A stretch of 63,683 nucleotides of DNA from Mustelus asterias (taxonomy: Eukaryota), in assembly GCF_964213995.1 (NCBI RefSeq), contig NW_027592091.1, positions 1 to 63,683 on the forward strand. The letters run 5' to 3'. Position numbers and translations under genes: made by a program. Positions 6,612 to 61,869 of the stretch are shown here, one piece after another. The notes beneath the pieces were generated by a model. That model had not been told where the DNA came from, made no database searches, and saw nothing but the letters and a program-made list of their open reading frames with translations. Position 1 is the first letter of the stretch; every line of letters starts with the position of its first letter.

Positions 6612-7764
6612 CCCAGAATTGGAGTTCCAGTTGGTGGCCAGAGGATGGCGCTGTCACACCAATAAATAGGGACAAGAATTAAACTCAGTGAGAGTCACAG
6701 GAATCTTCCGAAAAGAACAAAATATAATCCCCCATAAGAAGAGGTGAAGGACACGTTCGGAATTGTATTAGTTGGTTTTAACTCGCGTTCATAATTAAAC
6801 TCGCCTTTATAAATCTATTTGATCTATTTCGTTCACTTAGTGTTTTGAAGCTGTTTCCGTGCCTCTCTGTAACATTAAACAACTCTTCCTCATCTCCCCT
6901 TATAGATTTCTGGAGCCTTTGGCCCAAGACCAGTTCTCTGGTTTTTTTGATCAGACTGTGCTGTTGCGTAAGAAACAATTTATGAAAAATGAACAGATTT
7001 CAGAACTCATTGACTTTGATCATTCAATTGAATTTCACAATGTTTCCCAAACAGTATTCAAATATTCATCTGATTTACAGAATCAAGGAGCAGCGACAAA
7101 CAGTTGAACAAGCCAGATATGATAAGAAGTTTAATGCTACCCTGGTATCAGGTGAAGACAGTCAGGGAGATGTGGAAATTGGCTGCTCGGATTTGTTTGA
7201 GAAATCAAAGTCACAACATTATGAAATGTGTTCAGGGTGTGCAAGCTGTCTGGAATGTAGCAATATTGATCAAATAAACGCTATGAACAGCTCACCCTCA
7301 AAGGCCCAGAAACTGAAAAGGGAGATGGAGCGAGTGGTGTTCAATATGGTAAGCAGGCATGGAAAAATAAGGAAAGGACAAATAGGGACTTCGGGATCAG
7401 AGGACGTCACACAAACATGGAGAACTGTCCGTCTGCTGTGTGTGTGGCGCTTCACGGCCAGGTTTGACGGATGTTTGGGATTTTATCACCCAGGTCTGAT
7501 TTTAGAGGAATACAGAGTTGATTAGCAGCAGAAGGGACGATTTAATTGACACATTCATTATGTGATGGACTTGTCGGCCTAAAACGGTTCTGCAGTTTGT
7601 TTTCTCGGCCTCTCCTGGAAACAGTTCGGTGACAGTTGATCCGAGGTGAATATGGTTTCCTGTCGGTTTGTGTTTGAGCGGCTGACAGCGCCGCTGCTCA
7701 TTGTGGCTGCATCTGCCAGAAGTTCTATACAGCAGCGAGGAGCTCTGACTTATCCTGCTGAGAC

Positions 7765-7803
7765 AGTTTTTGTACAGGAGTCAGGCTGCTTTCCATCACT
7801 GTG
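7765..7803 (-). promoter_or_regulatory. 23-bp spacer recombination signal sequence
   Basis: CACAGTG-atggaaagcagcctgactcctgt (23 bp)-ACAAAAACT directly after YYCAFSL. Confidence 0.97.
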
Positions 7804-8262
7804 AGGCTGAAAGCGCAGTAATACACGGCCGCGTCAGACAACTGCAGATCCGAGATAGTCAAACTGATGGATTTCTTCGGGGTTTGGAGGTCAGTCGAGA
7901 AACGGATTTTAGCAAAATCTGCTTTATCTTCATTACCCCTAGAGTACTTCCACAGTATGTACTCGGGCTGGGAGTCTGGATGCTGTCGGTACCAGTATAA
8001 ATAATAGTAGGTTTCTGCAGTATCATAGTTGCAGTTTAATGTCACCGCGTCTCCTTCTGTCTTAACATCTGAGGACAGCGACTGAGTGACAGAATCTCCA
8101 TGGCTCAGACCTGGAAAATATGTTCAAATAGATAAAGAATAGAGTGACGTGTACTCAACAGTAAGATTCAACCCAAGTTTTGGAAATGAGAAAACAAACG
8201 TGATGTCCAGATATACCTGTTAGAAATGCCCCCCACACAATCCAGATGCCGAGTACCCGCAT
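7804..8262 (-). CDS. T-cell receptor alpha/delta V gene segment, intact (leader 8217-8262, V exon 7804-8110)
   Basis: Leader MRVLGIWIVWGAFLT, GT-AG phase-1 intron of 106 nt, then GLSHGDSVTQ..VTLNC..LYWYRQ..DFAKIRFS..LTISDLQLSDAAVYYCAF and a 23-RSS. Confidence 0.95.
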
Positions 8263-12205: not shown

Positions 12206-12672
12206 CAATACACCAATGTCAGCTGTGGGAATAGACTATCTTCGTGCTGCGAGGTGAGTCTCTGTGAGTCCCGGATTTATAATAATAGTCGTGTTGCTAA
12301 GTGAGTCTGTGTGGAGGTTATTGTGCATTTCATTTGTTATGAACTTCAGCAGACTTTGATCCATTCTGCATTGAGTTATCGGACGAATGCCGAGGAGTCG
12401 GTGTCCGTGGGCTCATCTGAGTTAACAATTCTGGATGAACAGCCGGTAATTTTCTGCTATATTACCCCCACTTCTGAGCGCATCCTTCAGCTGATAGCTC
12501 GATACTCCTGGTATCTGCTTACTATATAAGTCGCGGCATGGGGTTTAGTCTCGAGATTTACCAAAGTGCTTCTATGATGATTTGAACAAGGTCAAATTGT
12601 CTGGTAAATAGAATCGCCGCCTTCGTGAACACGTGATCAAAACATCTTCATGGAGTTGTAAATACGCGCTGA

Positions 12673-12711
12673 GGTTTTTGTACGGGGTTTCAGCTGTAAT
12701 CTAACGCTGTG
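12673..12711 (-). promoter_or_regulatory. 23-bp spacer recombination signal sequence
   Basis: CACAGCG-ttagattacagctgaaaccccgt (23 bp)-ACAAAAACC after YYCAVR. Confidence 0.95.
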
Positions 12712-13199
12712 CCTCACTGCACAGTAATAGACCGCTCCGTCCTCCGAACTGAGGGCGCTTATATTGAGGGAGCCGCTCTGTGTGGACTTGTCAGTAGCCG
12801 CCAGATATCGTCCTGAAACTTCATTTTCCTCCACTACTAATGCATTGGTAATAACCCATCTCGGTGGCTGTGCCGGTTTCTGCTGATACCATTGCATGTA
12901 GCTCATATCCTTGTCTGTATAGTTACAATCCAACTGCACCGAATCCCCTTCTGATGCTGTTATTGTCACCGGTGACTGAGTTACTGGATCTGCGCACAGT
13001 CCACCTGTAAAGGTAGAGGAATTAAATATCAAGAGTTCATGTAAATTTATAGTTTGTGGAACCTCCCATCTACACCTCACATGGATATTTTTGATGGTTA
13101 ATTAAATTGGCATCTTTGTGTATAAATATGTTTCCGTGGTTTGATGAACGTTATCCGGTACTTACTGTGCAAGAGCGCCGCCAGAATGATCAGAAACAT
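12712..13199 (-). CDS. T-cell receptor alpha/delta V gene segment, second family, intact (leader 13166-13199, V exon 12712-13004)
   Basis: Leader MFLIILAALLH + GTAAGT donor, then SGLCADPVTQSP..VQLDCNY..MQWYQQKP..LNISALSSEDGAVYYCAVR and a 23-RSS. Confidence 0.93.
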
Positions 13200-20633: not shown

Positions 20634-21839
20634 TTACTCGTGAATTCTTTGGTGTCTAAGCAGGTAGGATGACTGAGTGAATCTCTTCCCACTCTCAGAG
20701 CAGGTGAATGGCCTCTCCCCAGTGTGAGCTCGCTTGTGTCTCAGCAGGGTGGAGGACTGAATGAATCCCTTTCCACACTCGGAGCAGGTGAATGGCCTTT
20801 CCCCAGTGTGGGTGCGCTGGTGTAGAATGAGATCATATGATCGCCTGAACCCAGTCCCACAGTGAGAGCACCTGAACGGTCTCTCATCAGTGTGAACACA
20901 TTGATGGGAAGTCAGTTCACCAGAACTTTTATAGCACTTCTCGCAGTCTGAGCATTTAAAAGGTCTCTCCCCGGTGTGAATACGCTGGTGTGTCAATAGG
21001 TGGGATGACCAAGTGAATCCCTTCCCACAGTAGGAGCAGCTGAATGGCCTTTCCCCAGTGTGAACTCGCTGGTGTTGCAGCAGGCGGGATGACCGAGTGA
21101 ATCCCTTCCCACACTCGGAGCAGGTGAATGGCCTTCCCCCAGTGTGGATGCGCTGGTGTGGAATGAGGTCATATGATCGCTTGAACCCAGCCCCGCAGTG
21201 AGAGCACCTGAACGGTCTCTCATCAGTGTGAACACGTTGATGGGACATCAGTTCATCAGAACTTTTATAGCACTTCCCACAGTCAGAGCATTTAAAAGGT
21301 CTCTCCCCAGTGTGAACTCGCTGGTGTGTCAATAGTTGGGATGACCGAGTGAATCCCTTTCCACACTCGGAGCAGGTGAATGGTCTCTCCCCAGTGTGAA
21401 TTCGCTGGTGTACAGTAAGGTTATGTGAATGCTGGAACCCAATCCCACAGTGGGAGCACCTGAATGGTCTCTCATCAGTGTGAACACGTTGATGGGACAT
21501 CAGTTCCCAAGAACTTTTGAAGCACTTCCCACAGTCTGAGCATTTAAAAGGTCTCTCATCAGTGTGAACTCGCTGATGAGTAAGTAGGTGGGATGACTGA
21601 GTGAAACCCTTCCCACACTCAGAGCAGGTAAACGGTCTCTCCCCAGTGTGACTGCGCTGATGAGTTTCCAGCTGGGATGGGTAATTAAATTCCTTCCCAC
21701 AGTCCACACATTTCCACAGTTTTTCCAAGGAGTGGCTGCACTTACGTTTTGACAGGCCAGAGGATCGGCTGAAGCCTCGTCCACACACAGAACCCGTGTA
21801 CAGTTTCTCTCCACTGTGAATAGTGCTTTTTCCTTCCAT
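20634..21839 (-). CDS. C2H2 zinc-finger protein (12 intact + 2 degenerate fingers, no KRAB/SCAN)
   Basis: 401-aa ORF with TGERPF linkers. Splice acceptor at 21947-21948 upstream of the ATG. Confidence 0.9.
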
Positions 21840-22264
21840 GTTCCAAATCCACTGATATTCAGTTATGATAAATTAGATGACTCTGGCAGTTCCTGATATG
21901 ATATTTACTTTCAGTTTCCTGACTGCAAATCGTCCCCTTCTCGTCCCTGTGAAACTGATTTAAAACAGAAAAAGAGGGATTCAGAGAAAACCCATAGAGA
22001 CAGGTGATGAATAGAGTCCAGACCAAAGCAACAATTTTTTTAAAAACACGCAGGAGGCCAGTAAATGAGGATCGTCGAGATATTCAGCAGACTAGGCGGC
22101 CTGTGAGAGTTACAAACATTATTGAGGGCTCAGATTGCTGACTTGCCCTCAGTCTATAATGAAACATCTAGAGTCACGCACTGACTAATGGCGGTCATAT
22201 TTCCCACAATGCTCTGCGCCCCAGAAACCCCTCTATTCAAAAGTTGCTCACCGTAATTCACTAA

Positions 22265-25280: not shown

Positions 25281-28200
25281 ACAATTAATCCAGTTCTCCT
25301 GGATTACTGCTCTGTAACATATCACTGTGTAATCCAACAATTAATCCAGTTCCCCTGGATTTCGGCTCTGTTACATATCACTGTGTAATCTAACAATTAC
25401 TCCAGTTCCCCTGGATTCCTGCTCTGTAACATATCACTGTGTAATCTAACAATTACTCCAGTTCCCCTGGATTACTGCTCTGTAACATATCACTGTGTAA
25501 TCCAACAATTAATCCAGTTCCCCTGGATTACTGCTCTGTAACATATCACTGTGTAATCCAACAATTAATCCAGTTCCCCTGGATTACTGCTCTGTAACAT
25601 ATCACTGTGTAATCTAACAATTACTCCAGTTCCCCTGGATTACTGCTCTGTAACATATCACTGTGTAATCTAACAATTAATCCAGTTCCCCTGGATTTCT
25701 GCTCTGTTACATATCACTGTGTAATCCAACAATTAATCCAGTTCTCCTGGATTTCTGCTCTGTAATATATCACTGTGTAATCCAACAATTAATCCAGTTC
25801 CCCTGGATTGCTGCTCTGTAACATATCACTGTGTAATCCAACAATGAATCCAGTTCTCCTGGATTACTGCTCTGTAACATATCACTGTGTAATCCAACAA
25901 TTAATCCAGTTCCCCTGGATTCCTGCTCTGTAACATATCACTGTGTAATCTAACAATTAATCCAGTTCTCCTGGATTCCTGCTCTGTAACATATCACTGT
26001 GTAATCTAACAATTAATCCAGTTCCCCTGGATTCCTGCTCTGTAACATATCACTGTGTAATCTAACAATTAATCCAGTTCTCCTGGATTCCTGCTCTGTA
26101 ACATATCACTGTGTAATCTAACAATTAATCCAGTTCCCCTGGATTCCTGCTCTGTAACATATCACTGTGTAATCCAACAATTAATCCAGTTCCCCTGGAT
26201 TACTGCTCTGTAACATATCACTGTGTAATCTAACAATTAATCCAGTTCCCCTGGATTACTGCTCTGTAACATATCACTGTGTAATCCAACAATTAATCCA
26301 GTTCCCCTGGATTACTGCTCTGTAACATATCACTGTGTAATCCAACAATTAATCCAGTTCCCCTGGATTACTGCTCTGTAACATATCACTGTGTAATTCA
26401 ACAATTAATCCAGTTCTCCTGGATTTCTGCTCTGTAATATATCACTGTGTAATCTAACAATTAATCCAGTTCCCCTGGATTACTGCTCTGTAACATATCA
26501 CTGTGTAATCCAACAATTAATCCAGTTCTCCTGGATTTCTGCTCTGTTACATATCACTGTGTAATCTAACAATTAATCCAGTTCCCCTGGATTCCTGCTC
26601 TGTAACATATCACTGTGTAATCTAACAATTAATCCAGTTCCCCTGGATTACTGCTCTGTAACATATCACTGTGTAATCCAACAATTAATCCAGTTCTCCT
26701 GGATTTCTGCTCTGTTACATATCACTGTGTAATCCAACAATTAATCCAGTTCTCCTGGATTTCTGCTCTGTAATATATCACTGTGTAATCCAACAATTAA
26801 TCCAATTCTCCTGGATTTCTGCGCTGTAACATATCACTGTGTAATCTAACAATTAATCCAGTTCCCCTGGATTTCTGCTCTGTAACATATCACTGTGTAA
26901 TCCAACAATTAATCCAGTTCCCCTGGATTACTGCTCTGTAACATATCACTGTGTAATCCAACAATTAATCCAGTTCCCCTGGATTACTGCTCTGTAACAT
27001 ATCACTGTGTAATCCAACAATTAACCCAGTTCCCCTGGATTTCTGCTCTGTAACATATCACTGTGTAATCTAACAATTAATCCAGTTCCCCTGGATTTCT
27101 GCTCTGTTACATATCACTGTGTAATCCAACAATTAATCCAGTTCTCCTGGATTTCTGCTCTGTAATATATCACTGTGTAATCTAACAATTAATCCAGTTC
27201 TCCTGGATTACTGCTCTGTAACATATCACTGTGTAATCCAACAATTAATCCAGTTCCCCTGGATTACTGCTCTGTAACATATCACTGTGTAATCCAACAA
27301 TTAATCCAGTTCCCCTGGATTACTGCTCTGTAACATATCACTGTGTAATCTAACAATTAATCCAGTTCCCCTGGATTACTGCTCTGTAACATATCACTGT
27401 GTAATCCAACAATTAATCCAGTTCCCCTGGATTACTGCTCTGTAACATATCACTGTGTAATCCAACAATTAATCCAGTTCCCCTGGATTACTGCTCTGTA
27501 ACATATCACTGTGCAATCCAACAATTAATCCAGTTCCCCTGGATTACTGCTCTGTAACATATCACTGTGTAATCCAACAATTAATCCAGTTCCCCTGGAT
27601 TTCTGCTCTGTAAAATATCACTGTGTAATCCAACAATTAATCCAGTTCCCCTGGATTTCTGCTCTGTAACATATCACTGTGTAATCTAACAATTAATCCA
27701 GTTCTCCTGGATTACTGCTCTTTAATACGTCACTGTGTAATCCAACAATTAATCCAGTTCCCCTGGATTACTGCTCTGTAACATATCACTGTGTAATCTA
27801 ACAATTAATCCAGTTCCCCTGGATTTCTGCTCTGTAAAATATCACTGTGTAATCTAACAATTAATCCAGTTCTCCTGGATTACTGCTCTTTAATACGTCA
27901 CTGTGTAATCCAACAATTAATCCAGTTCCCCTGGATTACTGCTCTGTAACATATCACTGTGTAATCTAACAATTAATCCAGTTCCCCTGGATTTCTGCTC
28001 TGTAAAATATCACCGTGTAATCCAACAATTAATCCAGTTCCCCTGGATTACTGCTCTGTTACATATCACTGTGTAATCCAACAATTAATCCAGTTCCCCT
28101 GGATTTCTGCTCTGTTACATTTCACTGTGTAATCCATCAATTAATCCAGTTCCCCTGGATTCCTGCTCTGTAACATATCACTGTGTAATCTGACAATTAA

Positions 28201-30988
28201 TCCAGTTCCCCTGGATTCCTGCTCTGTAGCATATCACTGTGTAATCCAACAATTAATCCAGTTCCCCTGGATTACTGCTCTGTTACATATCACTGTGTAA
28301 TCCAACAATTAATCCAGTACCCCTGGATTTCTGCTCTGTTACATTTCACTGTGTAATCTAACAATTAATCCAGTTCCCCTGGATTTCTGCTCTGTAACAT
28401 ATCACTGTGTAATCCAACAATTAATCCAGTTCCCCTGGATTACTGCTCTGTAACATATCACTGTGTAATCTAACAATTAATCCAGTTCTCCTGGATTCCT
28501 GCTCTGTAACATATCACTGTGTAATCTAACAATTAATCCAGTTCCCCTGGATTACTGCTCTGTAACATATCACTGTGTAATCTAACAATTAATCCAGTTC
28601 CCCTGGATTCCTGCTCTGTAACATATCACTGTGTAATCTAACAATTAATCCAGTTCCCCTGGATTCCTGCTCTGTAACATATCACTGTGTAATCTAACAA
28701 TTAATCCAGTTCCCCTGGATTCCTGCTCTGTAACATATCACTGTGTAATCTAACAATTAATCCAGTTCCCCTGGATTTCTGCTCTGTTACATTTCACTGT
28801 GTAATCTAACAATTAATCCAGTTCCCCTGGATTTCTGCTCTGTAACATATCACTGTGTAATCTAACAATTAATCCAGTTCCCCTGGATTCCTGCTCTGTA
28901 ACATATCACTGTGTAATCCAACAATTAATCCAGTTCCCCTGGATTACTGCTCTGTAACATATCACTGTGTCATCCAACAATTAATCCAGTTCTCCTGGAT
29001 TACTGCTCTGTAACATATCACTGTGTAATCTAACAATTAATCCAGTTCCCCTGGATTACTGCTCTGTAACATATCACTGTGTAATCTAACAATTAATCCA
29101 GTTCTCCTGGATTACTGCTCTGTAACATATCACTGTGTAATCTAACAATTAATCCAGTTCCCCTGGATTCCTGCTCTGTAGCATATCACTGTGTAATCTA
29201 ACAATTAATCCAGTTCCCCTGGATTCCTGCTCTGTAACATATCACTGTGTAATCCAACAATTAATCCAGTTCCCCTGGATTTCTGCTCTGTAACATATCA
29301 CTGTGTAATCCAACAATTAATCCAGTTCCCCTGGATTACTGCTCTGTAACATATCACTGTGTAATCCAACAATTAATCCAGTTCCCCTGGATTACTGCTC
29401 TGTAACATATCACTGTGTAATCCAACAATTAATCCAGTTCCCCTGGATTTCTGCTCTGTAAAATATCACTGTGTAATCCAACAATTAATCCAGTTCCCCT
29501 GGATTTCTGCTCTGTAACATATCACTGTGTAATCTAACAATTAATCCAGTTCTCCTGGATTACTGCTCTTTAATACGTCACTGTGTAATCCAACAATTAA
29601 TCCAGTTCCCCTGGATTACTGCTCTGTAACATATCACTGTGTAATCTAACAATTAATCCAGTTCCCCTGGATTTCTGCTCTGTAAAATATCACTGTGTAA
29701 TCTAACAATTAATCCAGTTCTCCTGGATTACTGCTCTTTAATACGTCACTGTGTAATCCAACAATTAATCCAGTTCCCCTGGATTACTGCTCTGTAACAT
29801 ATCACTGTGTAATCTAACAATTAATCCAGTTCCCCTGGATTTCTGCTCTGTAAAATATCACTGTGTAATCCAACAATTAATCCAGTTCCCCTGGATTACT
29901 GCTCTGTTACATATCACTGTGTAATCCAACAATTAATCCAGTTCCCCTGGATTTCTGCTCTGTTACATTTCACTGTGTAATCTAACAATTAATCCAGTTC
30001 CCCTGGATTCCTGCTCTGTAACATATCACTGTGTAATCCATCAATTAATCCAGTTCCCCTGGATTACTGCTCTGTTACATATCACTGTGTAATCCAACAA
30101 TTAATCCAGTTCCCCTGGATTTCTGCTCTGTTACATTTCACTGTGTAATCCATCAATTAATCCAGTTCCCCTGGATTTCTGCTCTGTAACATATCACTGT
30201 GTAATCTAACAATTAATCCAGTTCCCCTGGATTCCTGCTCTGTAGCATATCACTGTGTAATCCAACAATTAATCCAGTTCCCCTGGATTACTGCTCTGTT
30301 ACATATCACTGTGTAATCCAACAATTAATCCAGTTCCCCTGGATTTCTGCTCTGTTACATTTCACTGTGTAATCTAACAATTAATCCAGTTCCCCTGGAT
30401 TTCTGCTCTGTAACATATCACTGTGTAATCTAACAATTAATCCAGTTCCCCTGGATTCCTGCTCTGTAACATATCACTATGTAATCTAACAATTAATCCA
30501 GTTCCCCTGGATTCCTGCTCTGTAACATATCACTGTGTAATCTAACAATTAATCCAGTTCCCCTGGATTCCTGCTCTGTAACATATCACTGTGTAATCCA
30601 ACAATTAATCCAGTTCCCCTGGATTACAGCTCTGTAACATATCACTGTGTAATCTAACAATTAATCCAGTTCCCCTGGATTCCTGCTCTGTAACATATCA
30701 CTGTGTAATCCAACAATTAATCCAGTTCCCCTGGATTACTGCTCTGTAACATATCACTGTGTAATCTAACAATTAATCCAGTTCCCCTGGATTCCTGCTC
30801 TGTAACATATCACTGTGTAATCTAACAATTAATCCAGTTCCCCTGGATTCCTGCTCTGTAACATATCACTGTGTAATCCAACAATTAATCCAGTTCCCCT
30901 GGATTCCTGCTCTGTAACATATCACTGTGTAATCCAACAATTAATCCAGTTCCCCTGGATTCCTGCTCTGTTACATATCACTGTGTAA
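25281..30988. repeat. 56-bp tandem satellite, ~102 copies
   Basis: Unit acaattaatccagttc[c/t]cctggatt[a/t/c]ctgctctgtaacatatcactgtgtaatc[c/t]a; phase is maintained across 5.7 kb. Confidence 0.98.
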
Positions 30989-31433: not shown

Positions 31434-33850
31434 AATCTCACACAAACACACACACAGCACACACAGATACACACTCATACATACACACGCTCAGACACAC
31501 ACACTATCTCAGACACTCTCACAAACACAGAGACAGACTGAGACCATGAAGGGTTGATGTCAGTCTCACTCCAAATAATCTGCTGGGCAAATTAAAACAA
31601 CAGAAGCAAATCTGAAATTCAGTGTGTGAGTTTTATTGTGAAATGAGATAATGTATAAAGATATCCCCATAGCTCAGGGTGGGAGTGGAATTGATGATTT
31701 GTCTGCTGTCTGAACAAATATTAAATTGTAGAGATTATAAAGTTTGAATTGTAATATCTAATGGTGTGAAGTATCTGGGAGCAGAGTGGGTGTGGTAAAG
31801 GCTGGAATACAAACTGGGGGAATGAGGGTGAAACTGCGGTGCACAGTGAATGGTTCTTGTTGTAGGGAGGGATGGGAGGAGGGATAGAGAGAGGAATGGG
31901 GGGGGGGATGACCTTCCAGAATGTCTTTCCCAGCCTTGAGATCCAGGGAAGTTTTCAGCATTAAAACAGAAAATGCTGACAATAAGAATCCACACTTTTC
32001 CAAGTACCAGTTGATTGTGCCCCAGATTATTGGTTTCATTTTTCTCCACCGCTGATGTTAAGATGATTGTTCTGTAATTTTTTGAACAGGGATGTAACAT
32101 TTCCAATCTCTCAGCCTTTTGGCACCACAACTCTATGAGAAGGATTGGAAGATTGTGGCCAGAGCCTCCACAAGCTCCATGTGAAGGACAGTTTATGTCA
32201 GAGTGCAGCAGTCCCTCAGTGTCAGACTGCAGTGTCAGCCTAGATAATGTGCTCAGCTTGATGAGTATTTCCTGTTGTTATTGATGTGGATCATTCAGAA
32301 ACAATGGACTCTGATGATGTCATCCAGTCCTGCTGCGATGATGTCATAGAGACGATTACATCACAGTGGAGCCTTTGTGGTGAAAACAGTTTTGTTCCAG
32401 ACGGCAGCAAGTTCATAACTGATAGATCAGCAACTAGAATTACTGGGTCACAGAGCACAATATTAGGATGCATGGTCAAAACCTTGTTTGGAGAGACAGA
32501 CCTTAACAAACACCTTTAATCTGGACAGTTAGGGAGGGAGTTTCAGAATCTCATATCCAGGCCTTGTTCCATTCACTCAAAATATTTTACAGAAATTGAT
32601 AAGTTATAATGATCAGGAAGGTTTGAAAAGCATTAATCTCTTCTCTTTGGAACAATGTTGACCCCATTTTCTGTCTCAATCTGATTCTCTTTGTCTCAGT
32701 TTACGAACTTCCATCCCATTCACTCTCACTGTCTCTTTCCCCATTTACTTTGCTCCCTCTATTCACTTGTTCTCTGTCTGTAATAATCACAATGACTGCC
32801 GGTGATTCTCTGACTATAATCAGAAAAGAAATTAATCCGAAGTGTGCAGTCCCACCCAGCTGGACAACAATGGAGAGGCACTGGAGGAAGATGGTTTGGT
32901 CAATGGTGTCAATAACTGCAGACTGGCTGAGAAGGACAGTGACAGATAACTTACCTCAGTCATATTCACACAGTAATTTGAGACTTTGGTAAGAGCTGGT
33001 TTAATACTGTGGAAAGACAAATGTAATCGGAGGGATTCACACAGGGAATTTCAGGACATATGGGCAGAGATTTGGGAGACGACAGGGATTTTGGAAGTTG
33101 TAATGAGAGATGGGCAGGAGGGGAACAAAGACACCGGGGTCAAGGGTGGGCTCGTGGGAGGAAGGGAAGCAACAGAGGCAGCTTTTTAAATTTCATTTGT
33201 GAGACATGGATGTTGTTGCATGGCCAGCATTTATTGCAAGTTGCCCTTGAGAAGGTGGTGGTGAGCTGCCTTATGAGTGGCTTGCTCGGCCATTTTAGAG
33301 ACAACCACACTGCTGTGGCTCTGGAGTCCCATGTAGGCCAGACCAGGCAAGGACGACAGATTTCCTTCCCGAAAGGACATCATTAAACCAGATGGGTTTT
33401 TACGACAATTGTTTCACGGTCATCAGTAAATTCTTAATTCCAGATATGTTTTATTGAATTCAGATTTCACCATCTGCCCTGGTGGGATTCAAACCTGGTA
33501 CCCAGAACATTAGCTGAGTTTCTGGGTTAACCGTCTAGTGTTAATACCACTAGGCCATCACCTCCCCTCAATCTTAGTGACAAAGAAGCTCCATGCGCTC
33601 CTCACACTTGTTGTTGGAGGTGAGGATGGCGAAGACAGGGGAGAGGGAGAGCCCTTCAAAAGGATCCAAATGGAGTTAGAGACATTAAATAGATGCAACA
33701 CAGTGTGTTCAATATAAAAATAGTAATATAAAACTAATTTATTTGACCTTTATCCACAATATTAGCCCAAACAACTGGCTGGAATTTATTGACATCATCC
33801 AACAGACCCCAACGAACATCATCCTGGATGTCACTGACAGCAAAATCCAA

Positions 33851-34899
33851 TCATTGTCGTTGCTTGTCAGCTTGTTGGTGTCTCATCAGTACAGAAAAAT
33901 AAGCAAATCCCTTCCCACATTCAGCACATGTGAATGGCCTCTCCCCAGTGTGAACTCGCTGGTGTGTCAGTAGGTTCGATGACTGAGTGAAACCCTTCCC
34001 ACACACAGAGCAGGTGAACGGTCTCTCCCCAGTGTGAACGTGCTGGTGCATCAGAAGTTTGGATGAGGAAGGGAATCCCTTCCCACACTCAGAGCAGATG
34101 AATGGTCTCCCCCCAGTTTGAACACACTGGTGTGTCAGAAGGACGGATGACTGAGTAAATCCCTTTCCACAGTCAGGGCAGGTGAACAGCCTCTCCCCAG
34201 TGTGAATTTGCTGGTGCACAGTCAGGTGAGACGATCGCTTGAATGCAGACCCACAGTGAGAGCATCTGAATGGTCTCTCATCAGTGTGAACAGGTTGATG
34301 CTGCATCAAGTCCTGGGAACTTTTAAAGTGTTTTCCACAGTCTGTACATGTAAAAGGTCTCTCATCAGTGTGAACTCGCTGGTGTGTCTGCAGTTTGTAT
34401 TGCTGAGTAAATCCTTTCCCACACAAGGAACAGGTGAATGGCCTCTCATTGCTGTGAACACGTTGATGGCGCATCAGTTCCCCAGAACATTTGTAACACT
34501 TCCCACAGTCTGAGCATTTAAATGGTCTCTCCTCAGTGTGAACTCGCTGGTGATTCAACAGGGTGGATGACTGAATGAATCCCTTCCCACACACAGAACA
34601 GGTGAACGGCCTTTCCCCAGTGTGAAGTCGCTGATGTATCAGAAGGTAGGATTGACGAGTGAATCCCTTCCCACATTCGAAGCAGGTGAACGGTCTCTCC
34701 CCAGTGTGACTGAGCCAATGGCATTCCAGGCCAGACGGGGATTTGAATCCCTTCCCACAATCCCTGCATTTCCATGGTTTCTTCCTGGATTGACTGCATT
34801 TGTGTTTTAACAGGTCAGATGATTGGCTGAAGCCTCGTCCATACACAGAGAGCACGTGTACGGTTTCTCCCCGCTGTGAACGGTGCTTGTTCCTTCCAT
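33851..34899 (-). pseudogene. C2H2 zinc-finger gene, frameshifted
   Basis: The paralogous ATG at 34899 ([16 protein letters not shown]) is 2 nt out of frame with the finger array and reaches TAA after 30 codons. About 10 fingers follow in the other frame. Confidence 0.8.
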
Positions 34900-35319
34900 G
34901 TTCAAAATCAAATGATATTCAGGTTATGATACATTGGAAAACTCCACCAGATTGTGATGTGATGTTTCGTTTCAGTTTCCCGACTGCAAATCCTCCTCTT
35001 CTAAAATGCTGTGTAACTGTTTCAAAACAGAAAAAGATGGGGTGAGGGAGAACCCACAAAAACAGAAAGGCAGTTTGTGAAATTGAGCTGAATGAATCTG
35101 GTCATTTGCGGGGCCGGCTCCAGGGAAAAGTGACCATTAAAACTGGTGGATTCTCATAAAAACCCAACTGGTTCACTAATGTCCTTCGGGAAGGAAACCT
35201 GCCAACCAGTCTGGGTCGACACAGATTCTGTCCACAAATTTCTAAACTGTCCCTGAACACCAAGGTCTGGGTCATTTGTATACATTAGGAAGAGCTGGGT
35301 GTTAACACCCGCTCCTGAG

Positions 35320-38300
35320 GAACTCCCAAACATCCATTAACCAGTATTTTGTGTGTTTCCTGTCCCCCAGACAATTTTGTGTCAATGCTGCTGCTGTCCC
35401 TTTTATTCCACGAGTCATATCTGTGCTCCGATGTCTGCTGTGCGGCAATTTATCTGATGCTTTTTGGAAGTCCATGTTCACCACATTAACAGCATTATCC
35501 TCAACAACGGTATCTGTGACCTCATCAAAATATTTCAGCAGGTTCCATAAACACCATTTCCTCTGAACACTGTCCTTCTTCATCCACATTTACTCAGGTG
35601 ACTACTAAATATGTCCTGAATTATTGTTTCAGGAATCTTCCCCATCACTAGCATTGAACTGACTGACCTGTAGTTTCTGGGATTATCTTTTGAGCAGGTA
35701 CTGACTAATCCACCTAACCTGCACATCTTTGGACCACGGGAAGAAATCCATGCAGACACGGAGAACGTGCAAACTCCACACAGACAATCGCCCGCGGCTG
35801 GAATCGAACCCGGGTCTTTGGCGCTCTGTGGCAGCAGTGCTAACCACTGTGCAGCCCCAAAACGTTTTCCATGTTCCAATTTCCAATTGCTGTATCCTGT
35901 AAATAGAGTTTCCAAAAAGATCATCACTGTTAAACCAGGACATAAATTCAGAAGAGACAAACCGTTCCTTGATTTGAATATTCTGTGTGTAAATCCCCCA
36001 CTTCTAACCAAATAAAAGCAAATTACTGCGTCTGTTTGAATGAGGAACCAAAAGAGAAAATGCTGGAAAATCTCAGCAGGTCTGGCAGCATCCCTAAGGA
36101 GAGATGCAGATGGTCTGTTAGCCTTTATTCCCCAGGGATGCAGTTTCCGAGTGAGGAAAGCTTTCTGAAATTGTATCCAGTTTTGGTGAAACCACATGTG
36201 GAACACTGCAGAGTTTGGGTCTCCTTACCCAGAGAATTGCCCCAGAGGACGAGTAACAAACGTTCACCAGACTGCTTCCTGGGATGACAGGACTGTGCAA
36301 TGAGGAGTGATTGAGCAGAACTGGTCTTTACTCTCTGACCTGATCGTAACCTCAAATCTTCATCCTGCTGACCTCCAATAACCTTTCACCTCCTTTCTTA
36401 CCAAGAATCTATCCACCTTTGCTTAAAATATTCAAACACTCTTCTTCCACCACCTTTTCAGGGAGAGAGTTCCAAAGACTCACGACACTTGGAGAAAAAT
36501 TCTCCTCATCTCTACTTTAAATGGGTGACGCTTTATTTTTTAAAACGGTGACCCCTAGTTCTGGATTATCCCACAAGAGGAAACATCCTCTCTACCTCCA
36601 TCCTGTCAAGGCCTTGCAGGAACAAGTCGCCATTTACTCTTCTGAACTCCAGCGGATACACTCCTAGCCTGTCCAACCTTGCCTCGTAACACAACCCATC
36701 AATTTCAGGCATTGTAAGAAGTCTCACAACACCAGGTTAAAGTCCAATTGGTTTATTTGGAATCACGAGCTTTCGGAGCGCTGCTCCTTCGTCAGGTGCG
36801 GAAGGATTCCAAATTCCAAATAAACCTGTTGGTCTTTAACCTGGTGTTGTGAGACTTCTTACTGTGCCCACCCCAGTCCAACGCCAGCATCACCGCATTA
36901 TTTCAGGTATTGGTCTGGTAAACTTCTCTGAACTGTCTCCAGCACACTTACACCCTTCTTTAAACAAGGTGACCAATACTGTACATATTACTCCAGACGT
37001 GGTCTCACTAGTGACCTGTACAACTGAAGCATAACCTCCCTAGTTCTGTATTTAATTCCCTTCACAATGAATGATAACATTCTATTAGTGTTCCTAATTA
37101 CTGATTTACTTGCATATTAGCCTTTTGTGATTTATGTACTAGAACACCCAGATCCCTCTGAATCTCTGAGCTCTGCAATCTCTCACCGTTTAGACAAAAT
37201 GCTTCTTTTTCATTCTTCCTGCCGAAATGGACAATTTCACATTTGCCCACATTCTACTCCATTTACCAGATATTTTCCCACTCACTTAACCTTTCTGTCT
37301 TTTTGAACCCTCCGTATGTCCTCGTCACAACTTACTTTCCCACCTATCTTTGTGTCATCGGCAAATTTGCCAACCAGCCCTTCATCCAGTCATTTCTATA
37401 AATCTTTGATTCCTTGCCCCAAATTTGTTTCCCTGTCTACTATTTAGTTTTAAAATGCTTTCCCCAGTACTGGTGTCAGTGCCCCATGAACCAGAACCCA
37501 CCTCCCACACCAATCTTTGAGTCACTCATTCATCTCTTTGATCTGATTTGTCCTAAGACAATTAGTAAGTAGTTAAGGTAATTATCCAGATTATGAACTT
37601 TGAGATCCTGCTTCTTAATTTGGTACCTAGGTCCTCATACTAGCCATGTAAAACCTCCTTCTTTGTCCTGCCTGTGTCATTGGTACCTACATGGACCACA
37701 ATGACTGGGTCCTCCCCCGTGCAGCTGTTTTTGAGCTGCAGATCCGACACAATACTGTAAGTTCCTCTTCAGACCTGAGCAGATGTCCTGAACCCTGGCA
37801 CAAGGCAACACAGCGATCTGGACTCATGCTCTTTGCTGCAGAGAACAGTGTGAATCCCTCTGATTACACCATCCCATACTACCCCTACATTCCCTTTTTC
37901 TCCTCCAACTTGAATGGCTTCCTGTACCACGGTGCCAAGGTCAGTTTGCTCATCCACCCTGCAGCATAAACAAGCTGAAAAAACTGCAATCCGGTTGGAC
38001 AATTGTGAAGGCTGAGGCTCCTGCCACCTGAATCCCCTTACCTGCCTCACTCACAGTCATCCTCCTGTCCCTGATCACTGACCAAATCAGCAGGTCCTGT
38101 CCTAAGAGGTGTGACTGCTTCCTGGTGTAAAGAATCCAGGTAATGTTCCCCCTCCCTGATGCATCGCAGTGTCTGTAGTTCAGCCTCCAGCTCATAAACT
38201 CTAACCGGAGCTGCTTGAACTTCAAACACTTACTGCAGATGAGTTTGCCCTCGATCAAACTGACACCCAGGAGCTCCCACACGCTGCAGCTGTGACACAT

Positions 38301-38420
38301 CACCTGTCCTCCCATCTTTAATGTGTGCGAAAAAAGTATTTAATTATTTTATCCAATGATGTATTTTACTTTTGATTTTATATATTTTATTAACCTTACC
38401 AGCAGTTGCTATACGATTTT
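35320..38420 (-). mobile_element. Degraded CR1 LINE fragments (ORF1 and RT) with SINE and Penelope-terminus insertions
   Basis: Minus strand CHSCSVWEL..CSKC..ELEAELQTLR (ORF1) and MDFQKASDKLPH (RT); CR1 3' region at ~36340-36710. Confidence 0.75.
36714..36895. mobile_element. Palindromic Penelope-associated element with hammerhead-like core
   Basis: Inverted arms gtaagaagtctcacaacaccaggttaaag..ctttaacctggtgttgtgagacttcttac flank the core at 36763-36799. Confidence 0.7.
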
Positions 38421-38668
38421 GATCCTTAGACATCGAATAAACTTTAGTCACTTTGCAGATACTCAGCAAATAGCTCGCCGCTCTTTCTCCTGTAGAAGAG
38501 GAAGATCACTTCCCAAAGGCTGAGAATATTAGAAAGCAAAAGGGTACCTCGTTCCCTTCCTTCCCTAAGTCCCTTAATCACCCAACTCTTAGCACACTGT
38601 TCTAAGCTGCATTCAAGTGATGCCAGTTCAGAGCTGTTTCTGAGCTGCAGATTCAATACAATACTCAC

Positions 38669-39846
38669 TTGCAGACATGGACATCAAGGCCTGTATGGGT
38701 CTCCAGGCCATCATGCACACCATCATGATAGGGAGGATGGAGATGGTGTTGCCAGCCATGTACATGATGAACAGATTCATGGGCAGCTGTTTCAATGGGC
38801 CCAAGGTGATGAAAACAGAAAGTGAGCAGGGTATCAGTAAAGGGGGCCGGTTTGGGGAGGCCATATGCTGATCTTATACACAGGTCTGGAAGTAACAATT
38901 AACTCAATAAGTCCCTTTATCAAACAGGCTGCTGTGGTTCACCAAGGCACTTCACCACTGTGGACAAACCAGGGGCGTTGTCAGCCACACACTAAAGACA
39001 CATTCAAATCTAACTTACCTTCTCAACTCGGATCCGGTCTGTTTCTTGGACGCGGATGTCCGGTAGCTGTTTGTCCGAATATGCGACTGGGTACATGGAG
39101 TCTCTCTGGCCACACTGTTGATCACGGCTCCTGTGAGAAACAGAAAACACAAATTGGTCACCCTTTCAAGACCTTGTTTAAAGAGGGAGTCTCTCTGTTG
39201 AGGACCCCAACGTGGTGACAATAGTGCCAGCATGAACTAAAGCTTGGGCAAACCTCAGACACACACTGCCGTTGCGTGTACCAAACTGCCAGGGGAATGG
39301 AGGGCTGCAGAAGTGGATTAGTGTCAATCAGGGTGCCAATCCACTTGCCCTCCATTGAGGGACAAAGCGACAAATCACCACATGTACCAAATTGTATCTT
39401 GAAAACAAACACATTGAGAGAGATCCAGTTCAGCACCCGGCCCTGGAAACGAGCAATCGTTCCTCCAACCACCACCGCAGTTGGCACCTGATCAGGTGGA
39501 GGGGCTGAAACCAAAAGGGCATCTCAGGGTCATGACCTGGGAAAAGATGCCAAGTGGGGTCTGAGTGGTTTCTGGGGGATTTGAGGGGCTGCTTTGTGCT
39601 GAGGGGCTCGGTGAGGGGTAAAAGACGCGTGAAAAACCCGGGGTTGGGAAGTTTTGGGTTGGTTCCACATCCCCGGGTCAGTGTGCGGTGGCGTCCCCTC
39701 GGGAGAGGCGGGCTGACCCGGCTTGCCGCTTACTTGAGCCCCCGGCTCCCCGCGCGGCCTCCGCAGCTGCTGCTGCCGCTCAGGTTAAACTCGAGGGTCC
39801 ACTTGTGCCAGCGCGCGCGGTTGACAAGCCCCGCCCCTGCCGCCAT
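38669..39846 (-). pseudogene. emc4: Partial duplicate of ER membrane protein complex subunit 4 (exons 39734-39846, 39019-39130, ~38669-38810)
   Basis: Exon 1 MAAGAGLVNRARWHKWTLEFNLSG..; exon 2 [28 protein letters not shown]; exon 3 [45 protein letters not shown]. Exon 3 lacks its AG acceptor and RCWD codons, and no later exons are seen. Confidence 0.92.
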
Positions 39847-40080
39847 GGCAACGCCGGCGACAGTTAACCGCTTTCAAATCTGATTCCGATCCGAAGAAGA
39901 AGCCGCGCGCTTCCGTCAACAAACCACAACCGCAGCAATGCGCATGTGCGGTCCCAACCTCCTCAGCCCATTGCCCCGCCCCCACATCGCAGCCATCTTT
40001 GTTAGGGGCACATCGGCTCCGACACTTCACCTTGTCAAACGGAGCACGTCTGCCCCGCACAAAGATGGACGTCACTTAAC
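39847..40080 (-). promoter_or_regulatory. CpG-rich housekeeping promoter of the emc4 copy
   Basis: NRF1-like TGCGCATGTGC, YY1-like GCCATCTT and AAGATGG, GC box and CRE-like GACGTCA. Confidence 0.7.
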
Positions 40081-40770
40081 CTCAGAGGTATTTACATCGC
40101 TTTTTTCGCCTCAAAAAACGTGTAACACAGTATAAAACGTCAATAAAACCTAAAGGACCTTGCCTCCTCAATCAGCAATCAAAATCATAAATATCTATTG
40201 TAATGGGTTTCTCCACAGATGCTGCCAGTCCAGCATTTTCAGTTTAAATTTCACAATTCCAACATCCGCAGTATTTTAATTTTATTTCCTTTCTATTCTG
40301 CCTCTAATGTAACTGGATATCATGAGTAAAGCTGCCACCAGGCTGATCCTTCAGTGTGGCACAGTCGTTAGCATTGCTGCCTCACAGCGTCAAGAACCTG
40401 GGTTTGATTCCCATCCTTGGATCATTGTCTGTGCAGAGTTTGCACGTTCTATGTGGGTTTCTTCTGGGTGCTCCAGTTTCCTCCCATACGCCATCCTTTT
40501 CTTCACATGAGAATCCAGTATTTTGTCCTGAATGAATTTTGAGGCCCAAGTCAGAGCGAATAAGTAAAAGCAAAAAACTGTGGATGCTGGAATCTGAAAC
40601 AAAAACAGGAAATGCTGGAAAATCCCAGCAGGTGTGACAGCATCTGTGGAGAGAGAATAGAGCCAAGAGAGCCAGCGAATAAATAACCCTATAAGATACC
40701 AGATTCACATAGAATTCAGCAAGAAATTCTGCAAACGTCCTTCAAACTGAACAGGAAACATTGCCATTCA

Positions 40771-49762: not shown

Positions 49763-51109
49763 TCATTTATGAACTCGCTGGTGTGTCAGCAGATTGGATG
49801 AAGAAGCAAATCCCTTCCCACACACAGAGCAGGTGAATGGCCTCTCCCCAGTGTGAGTGCGCCGGTGCACAGTGAGATGAGATAATTCTCTGAACCTAGT
49901 CCCACAGTCAGAGCACCTGAACGGTCTCTCCCGAGTGTGAATGCGTTGATGGGACACCAGATTACTGGAACTTTTAAAACGTTTCCTACAGTCTGGGCAT
50001 TTAAAAGGTCTCTCCCCAGTGTGAACACGTTGATGACGTACCAGTTCCCCTGAACTTTTATAGCATTTCCCACAGTCTGGGCATTTAAACGGTCTCTCCT
50101 CAGTGTGGGTGCGCTGGTGTGAAGTGAGGGCAGATGATGTCTTGAACCCAGTCTCACAGTGAGAACACCTGAACGGTCTCTCATCAGTGTGAACACGTTG
50201 ATGGCGCATCAGTTCCCCAGAACTTTTATAGCTCTTCCCACAGTCTGGACATTTAAATGGTCTCTCAGTAGTGTGAACTTGCTGGTGTTTCAGCAGGGTC
50301 GATAACTGAGTGAATCGTCTTCCACATTTGGAGCAGATGTAAGGTTTCTCGTGAGTGTGAACTCGCTGGTGTCTCTGCAGGGTAGATGAATGAGCGAATC
50401 CCTTCCCACACTGAGAGCAAGTGAATGGCCTCTCCCCAGTGTGAGTGCGCTGGTGTTCAGACAGGTTACTCATTTGCCTGAATGCAATGCCACACTGAGA
50501 GCATCTGAAAGGTCTCTCATCAGTGTGAGTGCGTTGGTGTTTAGTTAGGGCAGAGGATGTCTTGAACCCACTCCCGCAGTGAGAGCACCTGAATGGTCTC
50601 GCATCGGTGTGAACACGTTGATGGGACAAAAGTTCCCCAGAACTTTTATAGCACTTCCCACAGTCTGAGCATTTAAAAGGTTTCTCTTCAGTGTGAACTC
50701 GCTGGTGCATCAGCAGGTTAGAGGACCTTGAGAATCTCTTCCCACACTCGGAGCAGATGAATGGCTTCTCCCCGGTGTGAACTTGTTGGCGTTTCATTGC
50801 ACACTCAGAGGAGGTCATTGGCCTCTCCCCACTGTGAACTCGCTGGTGTCTTTGCAGGTTGGTTAACTGAATGAATCCCTTCCCACAGTCAGAGCAGGTG
50901 AATGGCTTCTCCCCAGTGTGACAGCGGCAATGCTTTTCAAGGTGAGATGGGGATCTGAATCCCTTCCCACAATCCTCACATTTCCACGGTTTCTTCCTGG
51001 TGTGACTGCGCTTGTGTCTCAACAGGTCAGATGATTGGTTGAAGCCTCGTCCACACACAGAACACACGTACGGTTTCTCTCCACTGTGAATGGTGCTTTT
51101 TTCTTCCAT
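49763..51109 (-). CDS. C2H2 zinc-finger protein (15 intact fingers + 1 deleted finger)
   Basis: ATG at 51109 ([14 protein letters not shown]). Acceptor at 51211-51212; candidate non-coding first-exon donor GTAAGG at 51943. Confidence 0.92.
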
Positions 51110-51454
51110 GTTCAAAATCCAATGATATTCACGTTGTGATAAGTTGTGCGACTGCCAAATCCGGATGTGATGTATGGTTTGAATTTCCTGACTGCAAGTC
51201 CTCCTAAAACCTGTGAAATTGATTTAAAACAGAAACAAGGGAGTGAGAGATAACCCACAAAAACACAAAGGCAGGTTGTGAAATTGAGCTGAATAAATCT
51301 GGTAATTTATGGGGACAGCACAAAGGAAAATGTGACCATGAAAGCAGCTGGATTTGTGTAAAATCCCAACCACTACATTAATGCCCTTCAGGGAAAGGAA
51401 CCTGCCACTCAGTCTGGATCTGCACAAAGCACTAACCTCGAAATGAGGGGGTGG

Positions 51455-56779: not shown

Positions 56780-61125
<4,346 letters not shown>

Positions 61126-61869
61126 CAAGGATTGGATTCTGCTTTTAATCACAGCCTGGATTGATAGTCTGACAATATCTGGTTTGTTTCTGCTGATGTT
61201 ATCATCCCTATAACTTTAAAGTTTTTTTTAAAAAAAATTATTAGTCACAAGCAAGGCTTCATTAACACTGCAATGAACTTACTGAGAAATGCCCCTAATC
61301 ACCAAACTCCGGTGCCTGTTCGGGTTAATGCACCTAACTAGCACATCTTTCAGACTGTGGGAGGGAACAGGGGCACCTGGAAGAAATCTACAAAGCACGG
61401 GGAGAACATGCAAACTCCACACAATGACCCAAGCCCAGAATCGAACCCGGATCGCTGGTAATAAGAGGTAGCAGTGCTAACCACTGTGCCACCGTGGTTG
61501 GAGTTTAATATTCTGGAGATGTCACTGATTTTCAGAGCTGCAATGTTCCTTTTTAAAAGCACCTTCTGTGATCTTTCTCCTTAATTCAAGAATCCTCAAC
61601 AAGAACCTGTTCATAAAGTTAACAATAAAATTACGAACTTTACTTCAGTCCTAAATTAATTAATCTTTTCTGCAAATCTGTGTGTGAGAGATTCCACTGA
61701 TTAACATCTCCAATTAGAAAGTGCTGATTAATCCTTGCTGATAATTCTGACTGACCTCTTCACAGTGAGGTGTCCATTATGAAATTCAATTGTGAAGGAA
61801 CCTAAACAAAGGAGTGAAATATTATACAGGCACGATAAAAGTTTACATAAAAACTTAAACAACACAGAT

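Follow-up and report, generated by a model that had tools for sequence, protein, structure and literature searches.

Emc4-like fragments that carry a promoter precede zinc-finger exons at many loci of the Mustelus asterias assembly

Promoter capture by partial gene duplicates is already known, and most of the documented cases are single events in apes. Of the cases described, NPEPPSP1-TBC1D3 comes closest to the one examined here; in it, a promoter-bearing partial duplicate gives rise to a transcript with two frames, the first of which stops four codons into the partner exon (PMC12871316). Among 3'-truncated human segmental duplicates, such as NOTCH2NL-NBPF, fusions are common and an open frame is rare (PMC6169893). 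Here we analyze a stretch of 63,683 nucleotides from the shark Mustelus asterias (assembly GCF_964213995.1, contig NW_027592091.1; C2059 in our numbering). This stretch, hereafter the window, is the entire 63.7 kb contig. On its minus strand, a fragment resembling emc4, the gene for a conserved subunit of the endoplasmic reticulum (ER) membrane complex (EMC4 or TMEM85; Pfam PF06417), stands upstream of the coding exon of a C2H2 zinc-finger gene (ZNF), also on the minus strand. The same arrangement, emc4 exons 1–3 before a same-strand ZNF exon, occurs in 47 copies. The explanation that we favor with good confidence as a whole is that an amplified emc4 duplicate had its promoter and exons 1–3 fused to ZNF exons. 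A divergent duplicate would have been amplified to about 100 copies within a region of zinc-finger and T-cell-receptor genes. Its intron 3, which is full of repeats, would have been broken in at least two different places, probably by rearrangement, so that promoter and exons 1–3 became joined to ZNF coding exons and ousted the first exon of the latter.

Like NPEPPSP1-TBC1D3, the shark loci place the 5' part of a housekeeping gene, duplicated together with its promoter, before a member of an amplified family, with an mRNA of two frames and no fused protein as the expected outcome. An intact parent lies elsewhere in the genome, and the duplicate is a DNA-level one, with promoter and introns and without 3' exons. 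The human case is one locus and one event with measured expression, whereas the shark has 47 loci and at least two breakpoints; the native first exon is bypassed in the former but gone in the latter; and the shark donor, unlike the human one, is itself a multi-copy paralogue family (PMC12871316). The shark loci would thus be the same arrangement working at family scale. With duplicates of the NOTCH2NL-NBPF kind they share the retention of the ancestral promoter and splicing into downstream exons; however, human truncated duplicates have few copies per family, whereas the shark partner is a C2H2 ZNF cassette from a cluster interleaved with T-cell-receptor V segments (PMC6169893). A literature search, subscription papers lying outside it, found no paper on EMC4 in a shark ZNF, elasmobranch duplication or Scyliorhinus context, nor on a ZNF/T cell receptor alpha expansion in sharks. 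The main text of PMC12227049 has no mention of EMC4, ZNF or zinc finger.

In the window, a CpG island (~40110–39560, minus strand; GC 0.63 and CpG observed/expected 0.80 in the 500-base bin 39501–40000) encloses the emc4-like promoter, 5' untranslated region (UTR) and exon 1, together with minus-strand motifs that we take to be YY1-like (39999–39992) and NRF1-like (39949–39939). The coding part of exon 1 (39846–39734) opens with the ATG at 39846 and ends in phase 2; exon 2 (39130–39019) is flanked by intact AG and GT and ends in phase 0. The first-pass annotation of this DNA had described the CpG promoter correctly, together with intact splice sites for both exons. This holds for exon 2, but the ancestral exon 1 ended at 39767, where the parental donor is lost (GT>CT at 39766), and the donor after 39734, 33 bases farther downstream, is an alternative one. 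The remnant of exon 3 (38809–38669; Pfam EMC4, E = 1.2e-16) has an intact donor, and its acceptor is missing, as had been claimed, through a 14-base deletion between CA microhomologies. A cryptic in-frame AG at 38788–38787 inside the remnant had been overlooked, and because of it exon 3 need not be entirely lost. Intron 3 (38668–36103), with pieces of long and short interspersed elements (LINE and SINE), is collinear with complete copies elsewhere. Exons 4 and 5 are absent, in agreement with the annotation, and there is no complete five-exon frame. Since introns 1–3 are retained, the copy is not a processed pseudogene.

The ZNF coding exon downstream (35008–33851; acceptor 35010–35009, ATG 34899, stop 33853–33851) is a pseudogene, a 2-base insertion near 34843 having shortened its frame to 30 codons, with no open finger array. 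Its acceptor had been located correctly, but a second one of ZNF-family type (AG 35898–35897) had been missed; the extra exon that starts behind it (35896–35840) continues into a SINE. Base 35896 sits 888 bases before 35008, its acceptor region is 74–79% like acceptors of other ZNF loci, and, spliced behind exon 2, the extra exon encodes an 18-residue tail followed by a stop. It also proved true that the phase 2 end of exon 1 corresponds to the frame of the ZNF ATG, with two TGA stops between. The window copy is a decayed family member, with a dead ZNF frame, a lost ancestral donor and a lost exon 3 acceptor. Its predicted products would be short EMC4 N-terminal peptides of 49, 93, 104 or 118 residues. 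Because the ZNF frame is dead, this copy cannot gain ZNF protein expression, and the chance of a ZNF protein from this locus is practically nil.

The annotation had treated the fragment as a lone duplicate. A genome-wide Pfam EMC4 search of the assembly instead gave 137 matches, a lower bound, of which 106 fall on exon 3 and 31 on exon 4. We fetched 10 kb around the 105 other exon 3 matches and two unpaired exon 4 matches, which makes 108 loci with the window, namely the parent and 107 nonparental emc4-like pieces found via exon 3 or 4. The parent, whose existence elsewhere the annotation had rightly anticipated, is intact, with five exons at ~20.307–20.336 Mb of contig C71, and matches the P0171 type. 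Twenty-eight loci have exons 1–4, two have exon 4 only, 31 (class B) show a same-strand ZNF acceptor ~5 kb behind exon 3, and 16 (class C, which includes the window) show one ~3.7 kb behind it. Exons 1–3 face an opposite-strand ZNF in 14 loci (class D), seven loci have a different same-strand ZNF piece and nine have no ZNF in range. In class D (L073–L084, L086, L115), the ZNF is 1.5 kb away and antisense transcription is possible. Among the 28 four-exon copies, 17 are complete: they have all splice sites and exon 5, and the 180-residue protein encoded by each of them has an identical counterpart in RefSeq; this complete divergent EMC4 family falls within L012–L035, on C71 and other contigs. 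The copies share the five-exon structure, the splice phases and the Pfam match of EMC4. A pattern for exon 1 matched 75 times, three times without exons 2–3. The three copies reduced to exon 1, L171–L173 (C123, C124, C154), retain the promoter and a part of intron 1 besides, and a ZNF on their strand is absent over ~8 kb. On a different large contig, L104 (C25 ~12757290–12757420) is a lone exon 3 piece without intron flanks.

To our knowledge, EMC4 is a single-copy gene in most vertebrates. In a protein search, considering the best 120 of 576 matches, the catsharks Scyliorhinus canicula and S. torazame each had several EMC4-like proteins beside the parent type. Among those 120 matches, the paralogue was not seen in lamniform or orectolobiform sharks or in rays, which is weak evidence. 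When 21 chosen proteins are placed in a midpoint-rooted tree, EMC4-like sequences from the three species form a clade separate (100/100) from the conserved parent proteins (ten sequences) and, within it, group by species. They share substitutions, for example, G>R/C at the WLQG motif, second hydrophobic stretch. Because this clade is separate from the parent type in three species, the divergent paralogue likely predates the catshark–houndshark split, and it was likely amplified or homogenized separately in each lineage. Synonymous divergence (dS) from parent to copies is 0.41, with a ratio of nonsynonymous to synonymous change (dN/dS, or omega) of 0.22; omega is 0.36 among 12 distinct open complete copies. 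In three carcharhiniform species, a conserved subunit of the ER membrane complex is thus seen to have expanded unexpectedly.

The 108 loci are spread over 49 contigs: 14 are on C71 (20.4 Mb), namely the parent and 13 diverged pieces of several classes, and the rest on 48 others. Could the copies be an assembly artefact, either a sole emc4 locus misassembled, as the annotation had considered, or many uncollapsed haplotigs? The window is itself a whole contig, most copies are on small contigs and 11 of them are ~100% identical over 551 bases. However, the contents of C71 alone, the dS of 0.41, the multi-copy paralogues in two other assemblies and spliced contigs of paralogue type in a related organism (see below) refute such an artefact as to the existence of the copies, and we consider it highly improbable. 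Over ~950 columns, 85 of 102 copies are distinct in sequence.

The breakpoints indicate how the fusions were built. The window tracks intron 3 of complete copies to ~37500 and then again over two LINE stretches, and it also matches an exon-4-only copy at 86% over 1666 bases. The latter match stops at ~36103, with 128 bases left before exon 4, which would place the class C breakpoint near 36103. Class B departs from intron 3 at another point, after a different deletion, and its ZNF is a different paralogue, the acceptor regions of the two classes being 80–85% alike. Because classes B and C leave intron 3 differently and carry different ZNFs, at least two fusions happened. In a DNA tree, class C stands beside some complete copies with moderate support. 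All 14 class D copies, and 11 of class C, have the same 14-base deletion of the exon 3 acceptor, a distribution that suggests conversion or recurrence. We also considered the two exon-4-only copies as reciprocal products and rejected this, as there are no emc4 exons 1–3 and no ZNF match in the 15 kb upstream of them. Intron 1 of L096–L099 contains a GC-rich insertion (~400–1015 of the oriented stretch) that is 88% like sequence upstream of the control ZNFs L167 and L168 and presumably resembles the 3' end of a non-long-terminal-repeat element.

The fused units appear to have spread as passengers of large duplicated blocks, of 55–60 kb here: most of the window recurs at 93–98% identity near C71:16.0 Mb, and much of it also on C88. 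A similar association is that of the BNIP3 copies on human 19p12, which are processed-pseudogene passengers of KRAB-ZNF clusters, although we found no paper confirming it. There too, a non-ZNF gene was multiplied with ZNF blocks; unlike BNIP3, the shark copies retain introns and promoter and splice to a ZNF exon.

That the emc4-like 5' end replaced a native ZNF first exon is supported by a comparison with other ZNF loci. A tight acceptor pattern retrieved 92 ZNF cassettes, and 40 of the 59 without an emc4 link were fetched as controls; fingers follow the acceptor in all 40, and one (L140) was dropped as the distant partner of an emc4 copy. An own CpG island, irrespective of orientation, lies 1–5.5 kb upstream in 38 of the 39 remaining controls. 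In classes B and C, 44 of 47 copies have one island only, which coincides with the emc4 5' end, and the other three have none in the stretch; no copy has a second island before the ZNF acceptor, and in the window the emc4 5' end is the only one. As controls have their own island and classes B and C only that of emc4, the native ZNF first exon has been replaced in these classes. Because the emc4 promoter and exons 1–3 stand in for it, these loci are likely driven by the emc4-like promoter, and transcription would start there. The motif AAGATGGC (window 39999–39992) is present in 16/16 class C, 21/24 class B and 14/14 class D promoters and in none of the 28 four-exon copies, counts that ignore the relatedness of copies; similar motifs occur at native ZNF first exons. 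BLAST of the window promoter against native ZNF first exons gave no match at E<1e-3, and a comparison of promoter with intron showed no clear pattern of selection.

The annotation had further proposed that single-coding-exon shark ZNF cassettes may gain expression by capturing housekeeping 5' ends. As a general claim this is unsupported beyond emc4, since 38 of the 39 control cassettes have their own island; emc4 capture is the exception among ZNFs of this assembly. A search for other housekeeping fragments before ZNFs gave no Pfam match (148 of 190 open stretches, 13 of the 39 control loci), a weak test because emc4 exons 1 and 2 themselves give none.

Chimeric transcripts, also proposed in the annotation, are seen at family level for class B. 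In the contigs of one run from a related but different organism, presumed to be RNA (X1), depth over exons 1–3 of the class B copy L044 is 500–1070 in exons versus ~16 in introns. Contigs join exon 1 to exon 2 with the paralogue 5' UTR, others join exon 3 to exon 4 of the paralogue, and behind exons 2 and 3 two loose ends read straight on into a ZNF exon of class B type, covering its first 23 and 27 bases, respectively. Two RefSeq proteins, XP_078059394.1 (P0071) and XP_078060087.1 (P0137), are identical to what L044 and L033, respectively, would yield when exons 1, 2 and 3 are spliced to the ZNF exon. Both stop two codons into the ZNF exon, whose acceptor is the sole site among 235 and 238 downstream YAG sites that yields their last residues; such a short last exon would be hard to predict without transcripts. 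Class C differs from the proposal, as XP_078060599.1 (P0184), the product of L065, L068 and L069, employs the 39734-type donor, then exon 2, skips exon 3 and splices to the equivalent of 35896. Chimeric transcription within the family is very likely; for the window locus itself we lean moderately toward it. Spliced emc4-ZNF mRNAs, each with two separate frames, would probably arise at the fused loci, with the emc4-like promoter driving them.

A fusion protein can be set aside, the phase match leading to one in none of the 47 copies. For 40 class B and C copies the fetched stretch includes exon 1, and none of them has an open EMC4-ZNF frame, whichever of three splice routes is taken; when all 47 copies are aligned, the ZNF lead-in shows in-frame stops. 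A protein combining EMC4 and zf-C2H2 was absent among the best 120 of 576 matches and among the four matches of a further search. ZNF protein from the 26 copies with a frame of at least 250 residues (17/31 class B and 9/16 class C) would need re-initiation or leaky scanning past the upstream frame, mostly of 38–149 codons; the predicted ZNF has 398 residues in class B and 348 in class C. A different reading of these structures is that truncated EMC4-like genes borrowed the ZNF exon as last exon and polyadenylation site, so that the EMC4 N-terminal product of 93–118 residues is what counts and the ZNF frame is 3' UTR. In RefSeq the proteins of classes B and C are indeed named EMC4-like, and they terminate two codons after the start of the ZNF exon; a stop codon in the last exon evades nonsense-mediated decay, as would these; and exons 1–3 are open while the ZNF is broken in several class B copies (L030, L032–L034, L044). 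Yet omega for exons 2–3 is 0.51 among six open class B sequences, not different from 1 (p=0.24), class C exon 2 has a dN/dS of 0.94, and exon 3 is interrupted by stops or frameshifts in many class B copies; class D copies have too few synonymous changes for dN/dS. We regard this reading as rather unlikely.

In the favored explanation, the ZNF proteins themselves may matter. Full-length ZNF frames give an omega of 0.32 in class B (11 copies) and 0.43 in class C (five), copies with a frameshifted tail having been dropped; broken frames give 0.66 (11 copies) and 0.78 (seven), respectively. These values suggest selection on the ZNF protein in long-frame copies, although a selected ZNF protein from the sister loci is a proposal we hold only tentatively, with the balance tilting against it. 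A serious competitor, to which we give slightly less than an even chance, is that the fusions are transcribed but without function and were multiplied within blocks duplicated for ZNF or T-cell-receptor turnover; it agrees with the claim of transcription and differs only on function. The recurrence of the whole window block (V segments, other ZNFs and satellite included) on C71 and partly on C88 fits it well, as do the 14 copies that face an opposite-strand ZNF, those that have none and the many broken ones. Splice sites tell the same story: four checked sites are kept in 47/47 copies each, which has a probability without selection of ~0.2 (B) and ~0.5 (C), so that selection on them, retention being not above chance, was rejected. 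It accounts less readily for the omega of long ZNF frames, which is lower than that of broken ones and of all six noncoding controls, for the 17 complete four-exon copies and the omega of 0.36 among the distinct ones, and for the persistence of the EMC4-like clade in three species.

Besides the splice-site result, several points weigh against the fusion explanation. Copy counts may be inflated by haplotype duplicates, as 94 of the 108 loci lie outside C71, nearly all on small contigs. The X1 evidence amounts to a single contig for each junction, which cannot be traced to a particular locus, and contigs cannot reveal a start site; the RefSeq models may not rest on transcripts. No junction of the window's own locus, or into a 35008 acceptor of class C type, was observed: in four runs aligned to 33500–40600, neither 39734 nor 39019 was joined to 35008 among the best 15 of 568 joints, in a region swamped by repeats where this is no evidence of silence. 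The ZNF frame is short or lacks an ATG in 21 of 47 copies. Finally, the six noncoding controls read as codons gave omega values of 0.67–2.97, so that omega p-values are overstated, and choosing open frames and finger shuffling each lower omega.

The rest of the window holds further features. Two T-cell-receptor-like V segments on the minus strand have a Pfam V-set domain. Behind one (7725–8123) stand CACAGTG and a nonamer-like run, behind the other (12637–13101) a degenerate heptamer; near C71:16.0 Mb, both recur as duplicates together with the emc4-ZNF unit. A 56-base satellite (25281–30988; 102 copies at 95%) is co-duplicated with the block and is shorter in the C71 copy. Two further minus-strand ZNFs have open frames of 412 (20634–21872) and 486 codons (49763–51223), the latter with its own CpG island at ~51.5–52.5 kb. 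A minus-strand LINE frame of 955 codons (57805–60672), with endonuclease and reverse transcriptase, is inserted in a ZNF at ~56800–61160, recently, because it is absent from the C71 sister block.

What is new here is promoter replacement at family scale by an amplified EMC4 paralogue. Where earlier cases are mostly single, the shark offers a replicated series of complete copies, two independent ZNF fusions, and live and dead partners. In such a series one can ask whether selection on a downstream ZNF persists when its promoter is borrowed from a housekeeping gene and another frame lies upstream. The loci also hold a warning for annotation, as their ZNF frames sit in the 3' part of gene models named EMC4-like. 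For ground sharks, we would tentatively suggest, knowing that this goes furthest beyond the data and is rather doubtful, that the amplified emc4 paralogue has been a portable promoter-and-leader cassette in the region of ZNF and antigen-receptor genes, with repeated swaps of ZNF first exons and two-frame mRNAs that yield selected ZNF proteins under the control of an upstream frame, and that a second EMC4 family of 17 members could alter the ER membrane complex.

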